IMG/VR virus record: IMGVR_UViG_3300022752_000024
Location: 78,882-142,881 of that record
DNA from: a virus
DNA length: 64,000 nt
Strand: one strand, 5' to 3'
In this document: positions 16,152 through 35,409 of the stretch, in pieces
How the letters are laid out: each line of letters opens with the position of its first letter
Position numbering within the stretch: the stretch's first letter is position 1
Position numbers and translations under genes: made by a program
Notes under the pieces: generated by a model
The model's input: only the letters and a program-made list of their open reading frames with translations
Told to the model about the DNA's origin: nothing
The model's database searches: none

Positions 16152-16242
16152 ATCATTCTCCTTGATTTGTCATAGCAAAATACTACGACTATAATTATAT
16201 ATGCATAGTGTAACACGAATGTAATAATTAAAACCATTAAAA

Positions 16243-16555
16243 TGCAAGGTGATTGGGTAATAAGGACACCTTGCGAAACCCCAAGAGAATTAAGCCGCTA
16301 GGCGTTCATCTCCAAAATATGCATCGTTTGCATTTACTTGTTTTGCTCGGATTACGTCCGTCGCCTTTCGTGTTGCCTTCTCTATTATCTCACCCTGTCG
16401 AAACCAGGTCATCCCCATCAGAAGTACACAATCCCCGCTAGAGCCCTAAGAGGTTTCTTTCATCTAGGACAACTATGCACTTCTGGTGGAGATGGAGGGA
16501 ATCGAACCCTCGTCCAGAATGCCTTCACTTTGAAGGAATTACAACAATTCTAATT
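16243..16555 (-). ncRNA. ssrA: Two-piece (circularly permuted) tmRNA
   Basis: Acceptor piece ends GGTTCGATTCCCTCCATCTCCACCA (CCA end at 16484); then a spacer; then coding piece starting GGGGATGACCTGGTTTCGAC (16416). Acceptor stem GGGGAUG/CAUCUCC with G3:U. Tag ANDAYFGDERLAA* at 16331-16290. Outer ends approximate. Confidence 0.92.
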
Positions 16556-16682
16556 CTTGTATTTTATTTATTCATTGTAGCTATACAATAACCAAATACA
16601 AATGGATATCAAACAACCAATAGCTAACCCGATACAGAATCCAGTTATGTATTGTATCATTCTTTATTGATTATGTCAATGC

Positions 16683-29442: not shown

Positions 29443-29595
29443 ATTATGCTCCTTTGAGTTAATTAATCAGTATGGATACAGTATAGGGTATCCATGCCGA
29501 ATTGTCAAGGGTTTTATCCTCTTATTCCTATTAAAAATAAGAGAGTTGTTGCAATAATTGCAATTATTCCTGTTATTATCACAATTGCAAGATCC

Positions 29596-29796
29596 TCACG
29601 CATAGTGCCTCTCTATAATCTCAGGACGATAAGAACCCACAAAGGCAATCAATTCCTTTGGTGATAGTGAATCCAGTTTTTCTTGGATAGCGTTATAAGC
29701 AAAATCTTCCAATTGTTCGGGTGTCATGCTAATAACCCTCTGCCACGCATATTCCGTCTGTATGCGGTCCCTACGGTCGTTAGTGAGTCTTAACAT
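29596..29796 (-). CDS. Early hypothetical protein
   Basis: Coupled to upstream gene; GGAGG RBS. Confidence 0.65.
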   Translation of the reverse strand: MLRLTNDRRDRIQTEYAWQRVISMTPEQLEDFAYNAIQEKLDSLSPKELIAFVGSYRPEIIERHYA

Positions 29797-30260
29797 TACA
29801 TTTCCTCCGTTTTTTCATCAAGTGCCAATTCACTCACTACGTCAGAGAATTCGGTATCATCATAGGAAGCAAAAGTCCACTGGTTGTTTTGAAACAGGTA
29901 ACAATACTCTGCTCCACGGTTATAGTATTCCTCAAGAAAATCAGCTTCGGACTTAAAAATTCGTGCGGTTGCATCGAATTCACCACGGTCACGACCATAA
30001 AAGGTTGACCAATCTTTTGCATTGGCTTCCTCATACGCCTCACGCTCACCCTCAAAAGGTGAGAAAGGACGTTTTTGACCAATCACTTTTCCTAGTGACG
30101 AAATATCACCCAAAACCAACAGGTCAAGGATATTCTCTTCCGTGTTATAACTTTCAACTAGGGTCTGACCAACACCTTGCAGATAACCATCCCAATGACA
30201 ATAAACTGCCATAATAACAGTATCAGCCAATTTGATACCAATAGCGGAACGAGTAGCCAT
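29796..30260 (-). CDS. Conserved early hypothetical protein
   Basis: MATRSAIG..VYCHWDGY..GQTL..GDISSL..YGRDRGE..EYCYLF, a widespread phage family. Confidence 0.85.
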   Translation of the reverse strand: MATRSAIGIKLADTVIMAVYCHWDGYLQGVGQTLVESYNTEENILDLLVLGDISSLGKVIGQKRPFSPFEGEREAYEEANAKDWSTFYGRDRGEFDATARIFKSEADFLEEYYNRGAEYCYLFQNNQWTFASYDDTEFSDVVSELALDEKTEEM

Positions 30261-30392
30261 TATTTTTTCTCCATAATATAATCAATCACAATTTTTGATT
30301 CTGAATAATCAGAATATTCCAAGGCAGCCTCAATCATTTGCTCATGCAGGTCATAAAGGTCTTCCAGCATGGCTTCAATAATTTGACGTTTC

Positions 30393-30722
30393 CTATACAT
30401 ACGTTTTTTCCTTCATCAGGTCGGAATACTCAATAGCCGTTTCAGGGTATAGAATTTCGCCATCAAAATCCAACTGGCTTTGCTCAAACCAGGACAGATA
30501 GGTATCAGGTTCAATGGTAAAATATTCCACGTATTCCTGGGACATATCGCTATTATGGCAAAGGATTTTTTCAACGTGGTCAACGATAGGCTGATAGGAT
30601 GCCTTATCATTGTAAATAGGCACGTTTAGAATCTTATGGGATGACCCACCTTTCATTTTCCAATAAGGTTCGTCAGGTGAGCCATAATTCTCGGTGTACT
30701 GCGTGTGGATGACTAGCATCAT
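30393..30722 (-). CDS. Early hypothetical protein
   Basis: TQYTENYG..YWKMKGG; first gene after the promoter at 30777. Confidence 0.75.
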   Translation of the reverse strand: MMLVIHTQYTENYGSPDEPYWKMKGGSSHKILNVPIYNDKASYQPIVDHVEKILCHNSDMSQEYVEYFTIEPDTYLSWFEQSQLDFDGEILYPETAIEYSDLMKEKTYV

Positions 30723-31707
30723 AAAAGTCTCCTATCAATCAATTTATATGACTATTATAAGGCATCCATGCCGAATTGTCAAGGGTTTTACCAACCTTCC
30801 ATCCACATTTCAATCTTGTCATAATAGTATTCCGCAAGGTCTGCTATAAATGACAACTGTTTCAATAATAGCAACGGAAACAGGATTGTCAATCGGATAA
30901 GCCATGTTAGGGTCCAATTATACAATTTTAGACTCCTAAAAAATTCGTAGGTAAGTCGGCAAAGGTTGCATTGGTACCATAAAGGTTTGCCCGCTGCCAA
31001 GACCACAGGTCGGCTATTTTATTATAGGTAGGACCAAACACGTATCCCGTAGCCTCTACACAGGACTGCCAGCCACCTGGCACGTTTTTACAGACAATTT
31101 TCATAATTTATACCTCATCACAAAAGTCAACAATTTCGGTAAGTTTAATTGCAGGGTGTGCAAAATCATACCACATTTCATTTACCAAGTCGGTTACATC
31201 GGCATCCTCAGATACCCAAACACGCACCACAACCTCGATGGATTTTAGTTTATCCTTGTCCAGTTTATCCTTGTCCATTAGTATACCTCTCTTTCGCGGA
31301 TGTCATAGGTAAAGTAATGATTTCCATCATCCTTTTCCATCTCTTTAATATAATTAATGGCATCATCATACTTGGCAAATACTCTCAAAACGGTATCTCC
31401 CTCATATTCATATATTTCCACTACAATAAATACTTTTTGCATTTTCTTACCTCATTGTTGCTAATCTTACCCATGCACCATCCACAGGTAATCTCAAGGT
31501 TTCGGACTCATCCAAAGAAAAGGTGTCAAAATTATCATCATCCACCCATCCGTCGGTGTTACTCCAGAGAAAATCTGGATCAATTGTGTTTTGAATAACA
31601 AAGCGGTTCATAATTAAAACTCCTATATTTCATCATCAATCAATATGGATACAGTATAAGGCATCCATGCCGAATTGTCAAGGGTTATTCCACTGGTTAG
31701 TGACCAC

Positions 31708-31917
31708 TTAGATTACAAAGTCTACCACGTAGGTATCCATTTCAATTTTGCTAATCTTGCACTTAAAATCAAATGCCTGCATCAAATTGGAAAAGACCTT
31801 GCGGGATACGGACATCGGAGCGGTGTAGAATAATGATCCATTGTACACTTCAAAGTCCGTTACCTTCAGTCCTGCATTGGTACACACCTCGGACACTACC
31901 TGATTAAAATTATCCAT
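31708..31917 (-). CDS. Early hypothetical protein (paralog of 33262..33474)
   Basis: YNGSLFYTAPMSVSRKVFSNLM..CKISKIEMD. Confidence 0.75.
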   Translation of the reverse strand: MDNFNQVVSEVCTNAGLKVTDFEVYNGSLFYTAPMSVSRKVFSNLMQAFDFKCKISKIEMDTYVVDFVI

Positions 31918-31918
31918 G

Positions 31919-32116
31919 TTATTCAGTCTCCCCAAATAGGTACGATATATCACGTTGGTCCAATTCCATCATTAATTCCTCATCAGCCATCGCACGATAA
32001 CCTTTGAAGCCTGATTCTAGAATTGACCTCAATAATTCCACGCCATAGTCGGAATTCATAACGGTATCAAAATCATTATCCACTAGGGTTTCAATAGCTT
32101 TTTCACGGTCGAACAT
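31919..32116 (-). CDS. Early acidic hypothetical protein (paralog of 33812..34021)
   Basis: REKAIETL..IL.SGFKGY..EL..EL. Confidence 0.75.
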   Translation of the reverse strand: MFDREKAIETLVDNDFDTVMNSDYGVELLRSILESGFKGYRAMADEELMMELDQRDISYLFGETE

Positions 32117-32165
32117 TTTTTACCTCTTATAGTTAAGAATTAATTAAGTAGCCTTTAAGCAGCCT

Positions 32166-32915
32166 TTACGCTGCCGCCAACATAATTGTAGGATATTTCA
32201 CAAAACCAGTGGTGTCTTTTTTCGCTTTACCTTTTGCATATAAGCCAACTACCACACCTTTAGGATCAAGGAATCGCAGGTCAGAATCATCACCATTAAA
32301 GACAGGACGACCTAGATACGATTCTGGCATGGGTTCAGTCTTTTTGATACCAAAGACCACTGCCACATTGTAACCTTGCTCAATAGCCTTAATAACATCA
32401 GAATCATTACCATCGGCGGCTGAAAAGGTCAAGTGGTAGTTAGGAATATGCTTAATCTTACGACCAAGGATTTTGGTATAGTCATAAAATTGTACCTCAG
32501 GGAATGCAAAGAAAATGTTAGGATACGTCACACCATTACGGACTACCTCATACTTTTCCCATGCGATATCACTAGTACCATTAGGACGATAAACAGGAAT
32601 CAAACCTAAACGGATAGATTGTTTAAGACCTAATTCGATATCTGCAACCATTAAACGCATGAATTCCTCACGGTTTTCAAAGAATAAACGGGTCTTGCGT
32701 TTCCGTGCTTCCTGTATGACGTTAGTGGTCTCGCCACGTTTCATCATACCGCCACGACCAGCCATATTGAGGCAGGCTAGTGTACAGCCTTCAGTCCGCA
32801 TGGCGCAGGTTTCATAACCAGAAAGGTTAGCAGGAGCAAGGTGTAGAATGTAGGTATTGAAACCTTGCTTAGTGCCTTTGAGGACTTTGGGATTACCCGT
32901 AGATAATAATTTCAT
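32166..32915 (-). CDS. Gp88-like protein (degenerate radical-SAM-like)
   Basis: LHLAPA..C..GC...CL..AGRG, RPNGTSDI, FPEVQFYDYTK, NYHLTFS, GDDSDLRFLDP..VVGL.AKG. Confidence 0.75.
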   Translation of the reverse strand: MKLLSTGNPKVLKGTKQGFNTYILHLAPANLSGYETCAMRTEGCTLACLNMAGRGGMMKRGETTNVIQEARKRKTRLFFENREEFMRLMVADIELGLKQSIRLGLIPVYRPNGTSDIAWEKYEVVRNGVTYPNIFFAFPEVQFYDYTKILGRKIKHIPNYHLTFSAADGNDSDVIKAIEQGYNVAVVFGIKKTEPMPESYLGRPVFNGDDSDLRFLDPKGVVVGLYAKGKAKKDTTGFVKYPTIMLAAA

Positions 32916-32977
32916 AATTTGTTTGCTTTCGTCAATTAATCACTATGGATACATTCTACAGGTAATCCTGCCAATTG

Positions 32978-33244
32978 TCAAGCGTTTTTGGCAAAATCTT
33001 TTCGAATGCCAGTCACCGTTTTCCGTGGCATGGAAACGGTAATATTATAATAACCTTTAGACTCCATGACCCTCCGAATATTGCCTGAAATAGTCCACCG
33101 CTGAAGGTGTTGCTCATCTGTCAAGTCCTCCAATATTCCACAGAGGTGTTCTAATTTGGGTTCCAATGTAAAAGGGATAACGTCAAGGACCTTGCCGTCA
33201 CGGACAATTGTTTTCTTTTTAGCAACCACAATTTCGTTTTTCAT
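32978..33244 (-). CDS. Early hypothetical protein
   Basis: AAGGA RBS; co-oriented. Confidence 0.55.
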   Translation of the reverse strand: MKNEIVVAKKKTIVRDGKVLDVIPFTLEPKLEHLCGILEDLTDEQHLQRWTISGNIRRVMESKGYYNITVSMPRKTVTGIRKDFAKNA

Positions 33245-33261
33245 TTTACTATCCTTTACAG

Positions 33262-33474
33262 TTAAGCAACAAAATCCACGGCATAGTAATCCATTTCAAT
33301 TCTGCTAATTTTGCAGCGGCCATTAAACTCCTTCATTAGGTTGGAGAATATCTTACGGGACACTGATAACGGAGCCGTATAGAATAAGGTTCCGTTGTAT
33401 ATTTCATAATCAGCAGGAGCCAGGTACTCGCCACATGTTTTATTGACAACGGTTTCAAAAAATGAATTTTTCAT
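33262..33474 (-). CDS. Early hypothetical protein (paralog of 31708..31917)
   Basis: YNGTLFYTAPLSVSRKIFSNLM..CKISRIEMD. Confidence 0.75.
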   Translation of the reverse strand: MKNSFFETVVNKTCGEYLAPADYEIYNGTLFYTAPLSVSRKIFSNLMKEFNGRCKISRIEMDYYAVDFVA

Positions 33475-33497
33475 GTTAATGTGTACTCACTTAAAAA

Positions 33498-33734
33498 TTA
33501 ATCTTCAGACAATTCCACGTCCTCATCGGTATAGCCTTCCACGTAGAAATTGCCATCATCAGCCGCAGAATTAACAAAATTCAAAAAATCCTCACGGTAT
33601 GCAATAGGATCCATTTCCTTCAGTATAGCAGATGGTGCGAATTCAAGATAGCCCATGCGGAACGGCTCATTGCATTCGTCCAACAATTCGTCAAACATTT
33701 CCATGGCTTCGGATTCAGTGTAGATGGTAGTCAT
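33498..33734 (-). CDS. Early acidic hypothetical protein
   Basis: FDELLDE..PSAILKEMDPIAYR motif; very acidic; AGGAG RBS. Confidence 0.75.
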   Translation of the reverse strand: MTTIYTESEAMEMFDELLDECNEPFRMGYLEFAPSAILKEMDPIAYREDFLNFVNSAADDGNFYVEGYTDEDVELSED

Positions 33735-33811
33735 ATAATCTCCTATCAATTAATCAGTGTATGGATACAGTATAACGGCAAAGGTGCCAATTGTCAAGGG
33801 CTTTGCCAAGA

Positions 33812-34021
33812 TTATCCTTCATACAATTCGAGTTTAAAACTATCATCAAACCGTTCTGCCAATTCTGTTATCAATTCAGAATTGGTATAATTCTGATAAC
33901 CACGGAACCCTGTTCTAAGAATATCCTCAAGGTACCAGGTGTCGTTATTGGAAAGAAAATCTGTTACGGTATTAACATCATCCCGAATCAGGGTCTCAAT
34001 GGCTTTTTCACGGTTAATCAT
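33812..34021 (-). CDS. Early acidic hypothetical protein (paralog of 31919..32116)
   Basis: REKAIETL..ILRTGFRGY..ELITEL; AGGAG RBS. Confidence 0.75.
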   Translation of the reverse strand: MINREKAIETLIRDDVNTVTDFLSNNDTWYLEDILRTGFRGYQNYTNSELITELAERFDDSFKLELYEG

Positions 34022-34099
34022 ATAATCTCCTATCAATTAATCACTATGGATACAGTATAGCGGAATGGCAGTGAATTGTCAAGGGTTATCCAAGGAAAA

Positions 34100-34450
34100 A
34101 ATGAAAATAAACCGTAGGAAATACTGTTATCCAAAAGATAACCGCAGGATATTCTATTGGTTTTGGGTTCCTGATAGTTTTTGGCTATCGGGCGCATAGG
34201 GTCTCGCGGATCCTCTTGGTAGATAGGTCTTAATTACATCCACCGAGCAAACCTTTCAGAATACTGCCAGGAACCTTCAGAAAGGTCTCAGAGGGTCCCT
34301 AAGGGTATGCGGAATGGCTAGCATAGTATACCGAAAAAGCCTCGGAGAAACCCGTTTAAACGGCAAAGTTTACTCTGGGACAACTAATTATCGGAATGAT
34401 AACATCATGCCCAGGAGTGGATTAGGATACCAGATTTGCTGCATCACCAT
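34100..34450 (-). ncRNA. Candidate structured non-coding RNA, family unknown
   Basis: Consensus promoter (TTGACA 34480-85, TATAAT 34457-62); no ORF of 60 aa or more and no clear RBS; nested long-range helices with G:U pairs valid only on the minus strand; U-rich 3' end. Confidence 0.55.
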
Positions 34451-34499
34451 AGAATCATTATAGGGTATTTCAAAGGAATTGTCAAGGGTTTTGCGAGGA

Positions 34500-34536
34500 A
34501 ATAAAAAAAATCCTCTAGTTTTTCCACTAGAGGATT
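34500..34536 (-). terminator. Intrinsic terminator after the Lys/Ala-rich gene
   Basis: AATCCTCTAG-tggaaaaa-CTAGAGGATT followed by a T-run. Confidence 0.85.
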
Positions 34537-34555
34537 CTTATCAAGTTACTAAGGC

Positions 34556-34855
34556 TTATGCGGTTGCAAACTTAGTAACAACGGCTTTCGAAGGTTTCTT
34601 GGCAGCCTTGATGGCTTTGGTGCCAACTTTTGGTGCTTTCATGGCTGCCAGCTTGGCTTCCAGCTGGGCGATTCGAGCAGCCTTTTTGGCTTCACGGTCT
34701 TGGGCTTTCAAGGTCTTTTGGATAGCCTTGGTGGCTTTTTGAGTAGCCTTGAATTCCTTTTCATCGGCTTGGGCGGACTTCAATTGAACCTTCAAGGATT
34801 TGAGGGTTGCGGTAGCGGCAGCGATATCTGCCTTAAGGAGTTGGATCTTAGTCAT
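34556..34855 (-). CDS. Lys/Ala-rich basic protein (histone H1-like composition)
   Basis: Very K/A-rich coiled-coil sequence with its own promoter (34926) and terminator. Confidence 0.75.
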   Translation of the reverse strand: MTKIQLLKADIAAATATLKSLKVQLKSAQADEKEFKATQKATKAIQKTLKAQDREAKKAARIAQLEAKLAAMKAPKVGTKAIKAAKKPSKAVVTKFATA

Positions 34856-35047
34856 ATGTTACCTTTCGAAAAAATTAATCAATTTGTTTACTCAATGGAT
34901 ACAGTATAGCGGTTTTGCTGCCAATTGTCAAGGGTTATTTCAATTAATCCTTGCGGTCAAATAGTGCGTCCAGGATAATGTATACACTACCTGCAATAGT
35001 TGCAATAATAAAAACGATCTCTAGAGTTTCCATACCTTACCTCTTAA

Positions 35048-35179
35048 TTAAATGCAAAGGTTAATCAGATTACAAGTTACCTCAACGATCCCACTACCTA
35101 CAATTGTCGAAATAGCAAGGACTGCCTTCGAGAATACTGCCCCGGTGATCAGGCTTGCGAGAATGATAAGGATTTGCAT
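35048..35179 (-). CDS. Small hydrophobic early protein
   Basis: MQILIILASLITGAVFSKAVLAISTIVGSG.. downstream of the promoter at 35240. Confidence 0.45.
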   Translation of the reverse strand: MQILIILASLITGAVFSKAVLAISTIVGSGIVEVTCNLINLCI

Positions 35180-35409
35180 AGTGTGGTTTTTCTTTCGTTT
35201 TTTCAGCGTATACACTATTATAGCGGATTCGGTGCCAATTGTCAAGGGTTATCGAGGGTTATTGGTGTTGTAGGAAAACAACGCTGGTGGGATATACTCT
35301 GAGGATTCTTTGTGACTCTGCGGTCAGGTTTTGGTGGGCTTAGTGAAATTAAAAAAAAGTTAATATTCTCAAACCCCTAGACCCGTAACTGAAAAACTCC
35401 TAGCAAAAC

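Follow-up and report, generated by a model that had tools for sequence, protein, structure and literature searches.

Genomic setting

The window, by which we mean the whole stretch of 64,000 nucleotides that was analysed, covers the right-hand 64 kb of an IMG/VR virus record that is 142.9 kb long and carries T4-like genes, and its source is an uncultured freshwater T4-like phage. The window has no tRNA genes. A circularly permuted two-piece tmRNA with the tag ANDAYFGDERLAA lies at 16216-16597 (minus strand); it scores 153 bits against RF04321 and 148 bits against RF01850 and could help to identify the host lineage.

Ten co-oriented promoters of the form TTGACA-N17-TATAMT are present on the minus strand of the window, where 0.23 are expected, and this array houses the stretch studied here. 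Eight near-identical early promoters between 29480 and 35245 (minus strand) have the flank CCCTTGACAATT in common, and several promoters of the array also share a leader ending in GATTAATTGATAGGAGATTATATG. In the hyperplastic regions of T4-type phages, promoter-early stem-loop (PeSL) cassettes consist of a stem-loop terminator and a sigma70-like early promoter together with a small cargo (Arbiol et al. 2010, PMC2839356); the minus-strand region 29480-35245, with its small ORFans, is a PeSL-like hyperplastic region.

Within it, a stretch free of open reading frames runs on the minus strand from about 34450 to 34096, and the promoter of the next cassette follows at 34082-34054. Upstream lies a gene of 99 codons (34855-34556, minus strand), whose lysine- and alanine-rich helical product was assigned no family in family searches, and a gene of the GP88 family is found 1.2 kb downstream of the element. 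A preliminary description of this DNA had proposed that the stretch is driven by a perfect early promoter, insulated by a terminator upstream and ends in a hairpin with a U-rich tract, and the first two of these features are indeed in place. The promoter, a consensus sigma70-type TTGACA-17-TATAAT (34485-34457, minus strand), matches at 12 of 12 positions, carries the CCCTTGACAATT flank of the other cassettes and has its predicted start near 34450; all homologs of the long form, defined below, have a promoter at an equal distance from the element. The intrinsic terminator of the 99-aa gene (34539-34506, minus strand) has a 14-bp stem and a U run, and from its sequence alone it would insulate the unit. 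Its hairpin is retained in the related loci L002 and L004, and L099 and L105 have different hairpins at that place.

A terminator at the 3' end was not supported. The GUUAUC/GAUAAC hairpin is AU-rich, lacks a U run directly behind it, was not called by the terminator scan and is missing from the L004 and L105/L119 forms; the same scan found no GC-rich hairpin with a direct U tail, a trait of Hfq-type small RNAs, at 34100-34150. Since the 3' hairpin is weak and unconserved, the 3' end is undefined, and because a credible 3' terminator is absent, a discrete RNA species is not assured.

Coding potential

The earlier statement that the stretch has no credible ORF agrees with our results: the longest sense ORF in 34100-34450 has at most 29 aa. 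A 54-aa frame (34197-34033) crosses the next promoter, and its ATG is lost in homologs. Stops occur in all six frames of every homolog. The loop of the first hairpin varies by 0, 1 or 2 nt among homologs, and because these 1- and 2-nt indels precede the conserved 5' block, that block falls into three reading frames. In the longest ungapped block, the variable positions number 9, 8 and 10 in the three phases, and three-base periodicity is absent. Translated similarity to other loci was limited to direct homologs (tblastx, about 100 related loci), a result that counts against a pseudogene. An antisense ORF was also rejected: L002 and L004 share a peptide-like antisense stretch, but at that place each of the three antisense frames of the window is interrupted by stops, and periodicity is lacking. 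The stretch lacks the Shine-Dalgarno sequence and ATG-initiated ORFan of a PeSL-type coding cargo. From the absence of an ORF, the frame-shifting indels and the missing periodicity, it follows that the stretch is not coding.

Distribution and conservation

Members of the family were found by pattern scans, by profile search and by look-ups via the neighbouring 99-aa protein. Of roughly 600 contigs of related phages, about a dozen carry the element, which is absent from about 80 related phage loci retrieved via the GP88-family gene. Pattern matches in L091, L094, L095, L102 and L121 were discarded as chance occurrences in coding DNA. The members fall into six types. The long form is found in the window (type A), in L002 (type B), in L004 with partial copies in L099 and L096 (type C), and in L105-L108 and L119 (type D); the short form is found in L103/L104 (type E) and L111/L112 (type F). 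Short forms have no promoter of their own and are placed directly behind the stop codon of an 89-96-aa homolog of the neighbour gene, a position that suggests a link between the protein gene and the putative RNA module.

When the window is compared with L002 or L004, the adjacent gene shows 47-49% identity at third codon positions. Mean identity of the ORF-free stretch is 54-68% and very uneven, perfect runs of 20-40 nt being interspersed with segments rich in substitutions and indels. The perfect runs comprise GAUGCAGCAAA..UCUGGUAUCCUAAUCCACUCCUG, GUUAUCAUU, UCUCCGAGG, UUUUUCGG, ACUAUG, CUGAAAGGnUUnCUCGGUGG, AAGACC and GCGA..GCG. Internal blocks are invariant across types A-D and partly present in E, F and X; their recurrence in all types argues for purifying selection and against recent patchy exchange. 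As judged from these alignments, the stretch is under selection and is not coding.

Conservation does not extend evenly to the 3' end. Blocks B7/B8 (34193-34231, minus strand), which comprise AAGACC, CCAAGAGGAUCC and a short hairpin CGCG..UGCG, are kept in both long and short forms. The variable 3' tail (34096-34189, minus strand), with a GAUAG/CUAUC hairpin, a GGUUAUC/GAUAAC hairpin and a U-rich run, is shared by the window with L002 only, and the other types have a AAUGAGAA/UUCUCAUU hairpin in its place. In L105 (1200-1270, plus strand; type D) the central domain contains a direct duplication of UGCCAGUAU, and the altered block B6 of this locus (GGAUGGCUC) has become strongly complementary to GAGCCUGUCC next to it (-14.5 kcal/mol).

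A 5' head and a 3' module

The 5' part of the unit consists of two predicted hairpins and the linker between them. Hairpin H1, GAUGCAG/CUGGUAUC (34426-34445, minus strand), has an invariant stem and a loop of variable length (CAAAU, CAAAAU, CAAAAUU or CAAAGCA). GC-richer relatives carry a second, unrelated H1, AGCACUGG-N4-CCGAGGCU, with five loops (ACGU, ACAU, UCAU, CGCA and AUGC). Next comes the invariant linker CUAAUCCACUCCUG (34412-34425, minus strand), the most conserved element of all, with the family consensus CUAAUCCRCYCCUG. In predicted folds its first seven bases are mostly unpaired in type-2 members, and in several folds its ACUC pairs with GAGU. Hairpin H2', CUGGGCA/UGUCCCAG (34375-34414, minus strand), has GUUAUC near its tip and is predicted with a probability of 0.79-0.98. 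All members have a hairpin after CCUG, and its stems differ: UGCA/UGCA in types B-D, GCGC/GCGC and CUUG-CGCC/GGCG-CGAG in more distant members. The hairpin-linker-hairpin arrangement was predicted independently in 9 of 12 members, with the two unrelated H1 sequences, and the head stands at +1 of the promoter in every member.

The head also occurs alone or on other ORF-free bodies (L093, L057/L130, L131, L133, L134, L135 and L128), and the 3' module occurs alone in types E (L103/L104) and F (L111/L112). Because head and 3' module are found separately in other phages, the unit of the window is a composite.

Several of these loci deserve description. L093 (7145-7262, plus strand) has a truncated head, made of promoter, CCACUCCUGCACCCAAUGUUAUCA and a small hairpin, between two promoters, and the same phage has a full-length copy. 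At L130 3274, and in L133 and L134, the head leads a short unit that is followed by a stem-loop, a promoter and a gene within about 60-90 nt; the stem-loop, CCGUUG-N8-CAACGG (L130 3310-3335 and the equivalents in L133/L134), abuts the -35 box of the promoter that follows, on its upstream side. Another long unit without ORFs, with the same head and a different body, is present in L130 (3879-4330, plus strand) and also in L135, L133 and L128. It has stops and non-triplet indels in all frames and the conserved blocks CGUUUGGACCAUUnUAnCAUGCGG and GGACCUUCCUGCGnnCCUCnGAG, and its copies in L130 and L135 close with a GAGAAUGAUUCUC hairpin like that of types C-F. The short 3' module of L103 (1792-2010, plus strand) and L111 (1471-1660, plus strand) holds a perfect 12-bp hairpin, CUCAGAGACCCU-UAG-AGGGUUUCUGGG. 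In L106 (1690-1745, plus strand; type D) the part after CCCCAGAGGA has been swapped for the start of a 179-aa gene, a joint that shows recombination inside the putative RNA body.

Secondary structure

The preliminary description had assigned a set of nested helices to the minus-strand RNA and had regarded them as one large, intricately folded molecule. The helices lie where it placed them and contain the G:U pairs that it reported; the single intricate fold was not borne out, as energy z-scores are ordinary, formal covariation is nil and the modules are separate elsewhere. The minimum free energy (MFE) of the sense strand is -91.3 against -86.3 +/- 5.9 for dinucleotide shuffles (z -0.85); folding is better on the antisense strand (z -2.09). 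RNAalifold on an unbiased MAFFT alignment, compared with column shuffles, gave z-scores of +0.8 to +1.3 for sense and -1.5 for antisense, and z-scores for folding of the central domain are between -1.5 and +0.2. The helix set is no more than chance gives. MFE folds computed per sequence differ among homologs.

The proposed check for covariation, carried out as a formal pair count on 10 sequences, yielded nothing above shuffles. For a model close to the one first drawn, covariation is 0.061 in both real and shuffled alignments, and two pairs only change on both sides; 84.5% of its cells are paired against 31-50% with partners slid. The window row of this alignment is misaligned for two of the helices, which are thereby understated. 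An alternative model in which B6 pairs with B3/B4 (CCGAG:CUCGG and UUUUUCGG:CUGAAAGG) scores equally well, with 86.7% of cells paired overall, and its B3/B4:B6 helices are 97-100% paired and almost invariant.

Helix by helix, the earlier list stood in part: CCAC/GUGG, the hairpin after CCUG, the 11-bp helix and UGCUAG/CUGGCA recur among homologs, and UUAUC/GAUAA, ACCUU/AAGGU and GAUAG/CUAUC are not kept beyond the closest relative. Block B6, CUGAAAGGUUUGCUCGGUGG(AU) (34238-34259, minus strand), provides the 3' strand both of helix P3 and of the closing CCAC/GUGG. The 5' strand of P3 is GAGUAAACUUU (34365-34375, minus strand), and the 11-bp helix GAGUAAACUUU/AAGGUUUGCUC ranks first among the pairings of the B6 core for types A, C and E and third for D, and is absent in B (L002); its changes are U:G to U:A, A:U to G:U and U:G to C:G. 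Blocks B3/B4, CUCCGAGG..UUUUUCGG (34331-34347, minus strand), are invariant in all long forms and could either form a local hairpin or act as a long-range partner of B6. Helix P-c pairs UGCUAG (34318-34323, minus strand) with CUGGCA (34270-34265); in L002 and L004 it becomes GGAUGG/CUGUCC by two double changes, it is broken in type D and it has one mismatch in L099. The closing CCAC/GUGG becomes CCGC/GUGG, with a G:U pair, in type D. Compared by hand in few lineages, these four helices thus appear to be kept through compatible or compensatory changes, a pattern that is suggestive.

Search for known RNA families

That the stretch bears no signature of RNase P, 6S, SRP, tRNA or intron, as had been noted from the letters, was confirmed with covariance models: no Rfam 15 family, with tmRNA, ribozymes and GOLLD, ROOL and HEARO RNAs included, matched 34100-34450 at gathering score or at E<=10. 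Weak Rfam matches near the stretch all cover the upstream terminator, and neither the homologs L092 and L100 nor the L057/L130 units gave any. ARAGORN found no tRNA or tmRNA in L057. The likeness of CUCUAAU to an anticodon loop was dismissed, the flanking stem pairing at 3 of 5 positions and ARAGORN returning nothing, and a BLAST search of INPHARED phages gave no match. A template RNA of a retron or diversity-generating element was rejected because the stretch is single-copy in the 142.9-kb record, with no second repeat copy. None of the RNA-cargo cassettes is in Rfam, and cassettes with RNA cargo are barely described.

Interpretation

The promoter-driven, insulated and ORF-free unit is probably a non-coding early RNA, which is the best reading of the sequence comparisons, and it is likely to have two parts. 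As the promoter implies, it would be transcribed leftwards by host RNA polymerase, starting at about 34450, as soon as infection has begun. The product would be a fusion of a 5' head (about 34450-34375) and a 3' module (about 34375-34190): the head would present two hairpins around a single-stranded CUAAUCCACUCCUG, which contains the anti-Shine-Dalgarno-like CUCCU, and the 3' module would be built around the GAGUAAACUUU/AAGGUUUGCUC helix and blocks B6-B8. The linker would be the working part, pairing with purine-rich, RBS-like host or phage RNA or serving as a protein-binding platform, and the hairpins and 3' module may give stability or a second contact. We tentatively favour, at a little under an even chance, an early RNA that acts in trans by way of the invariant linker and is the cargo of a PeSL-type cassette. 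A broader proposal is quite doubtful, namely that these freshwater T4-like phages have a family of mobile genes for non-coding RNAs put together from exchangeable modules, much as PeSL cassettes shuffle ORFans, and that the anti-Shine-Dalgarno-like strand of the shared head reprograms translation or titrates a host factor in the earliest minutes of infection.

The protein sponge, anti-defence decoy or ribozyme that had been suggested as functions are guesses. Within the phage genome, complementarity reaches 13 nt at most, inside coding sequence and at chance level. Host mimicry was rejected: the B1 and B6 20-mers gave no match and six scattered matches in 185,579 species genomes, for a pattern of about 37 bits with about 9 matches expected by chance, and nhmmer extended over only 20-40 nt around the pattern match in these genome-scan matches. 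A CsrA-type sponge was likewise rejected, since a count by eye gave about 7 GGA motifs in the copy of L002 where about 5.6 are expected, which is no enrichment.

Among other explanations, the head could be a cis-acting 5' leader. It would either modify or pause the transcribing polymerase, in the manner of put antitermination, or govern how an early transcript that continues into the downstream cassettes is processed or how stable it is. Its two hairpins stand at +1 of the promoter in every member; with no credible 3' terminator, transcripts probably run on; and in L130, L133 and L134 the head is shortly followed by a stem-loop, a promoter and a gene. The downstream gene nevertheless changes between members: the window has a 74-aa ORF there, L002/L004 an unrelated one of 64-68 aa, a difference that argues against a gene-specific leader; moreover, each downstream gene has its own consensus promoter, and the window has no terminator-like site downstream before 30492, so that we regard a cis-acting role as unlikely. 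A single large RNA with a global fold, be it a ribozyme or an RNP scaffold, whose nested helices close a multi-branched fold and whose function needs the whole architecture, would account for the A to G change tolerated as G:U in CCAC/GUGG, the compatible changes of the 11-bp helix in types A, C, D and E, the two double changes from UGCUAG/CUGGCA to GGAUGG/CUGUCC and the excess of paired cells over slid partners. This is improbable to us, given non-significant z-scores for single sequences and alignments, covariation equal to shuffles, MFE folds that vary between homologs, a second and equally conserved partner of B6 in B3/B4, halves that are separate in other phages and the lack of the 11-bp helix in L002.

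We also give little probability to a functionless stretch, either a decayed ORFan or a spacer between recombination-prone cassettes, in which the blocks would be recent gene-conversion patches. The element is rare among relatives and sits in a mosaic context, truncated or hybrid copies exist (L093, L096, L108 and L106), mean identity between window and L004 (0.54) is near that of third codon positions (0.49), and recombination of PeSL cassettes is documented (PMC2839356); yet blocks stay invariant in A-D and partly in E, F and X despite diverged, indel-bearing segments between them, no homolog keeps an ORF, and neither codon periodicity nor translated similarity elsewhere is seen. A role at the level of DNA, be it as an origin of replication primed by a transcript, like oriE of T4, or as a protein-binding array, is very unlikely. 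A promoter that fires into non-coding DNA would fit it, as would the recurring TTATC/GATAA-type words, including the plus-strand TTATCCAAA in the 3' hairpin, which we take to resemble a DnaA box; the conserved blocks, however, are neither repeated nor palindromic, iterons are absent, GC skew does not turn at the site, GATAAC words are in the unconserved part, and the helices use strand-specific G:U pairs. Least credible of all, and in our opinion extremely unlikely, is that the element encodes one or more micro-peptides: there is an AUG at 34444-34442 (MQQ...) and there are TTG and GTG frames of 29 aa, but the MQQ frame measures 18, 7 and 24 codons in three homologs and lacks a properly spaced Shine-Dalgarno sequence, the conserved block falls in three frames, and periodicity is missing.

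If the unit is expressed, its 14-nt motif between two hairpins offers a defined handle on the action of phage early RNAs in bacteria that abound in fresh water. Should it prove not to be expressed, it illustrates how RNA genes can be mimicked in cassette arrays by consensus promoters together with spacers rich in hairpins.

Comparison with known systems

Small RNAs of T4-type phages include the stable RNAs species 1 and 2 of T4 (rnaC and rnaD), whose function is unknown. They are encoded within the tRNA gene cluster and undergo processing together with the tRNAs, whereas the window has no tRNA genes and its unit has no sequence relation to them, is longer and has its own early promoter. The put RNA of phage HK022, which forms two stem-loops directly downstream of an early promoter and acts in processive antitermination, resembles the head module in its two-hairpin layout; there is no match to it in sequence or model, however, and conservation in the present family is strongest in the single strand that separates the hairpins. 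With trans-acting small RNAs that use a 5' seed, the unit has in common an invariant, unstructured stretch near the 5' end flanked by hairpins, and it differs from them in its length of about 350 nt and in having no Rho-independent terminator with U tail.

The PeSL cassettes are alike in a strong early promoter with a conserved flank, an adjacent upstream stem-loop and a co-oriented array in a plastic region. They are also alike in a cargo that is present, absent, swapped or truncated among close relatives, as where the neighbours of L099, L002 and L004 differ. As described, such cassettes carry a protein ORFan, with the Shine-Dalgarno sequence and start codon placed at the end of the cassette, whereas the cargo here is non-coding and would consist of two shuffled RNA modules. 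Early regions of T4-type phages are usually read as arrays of small orphan proteins, and this small RNA-like family, with its promoter and its invariant single-stranded motif, would add RNA modules shuffled like genes to that picture.
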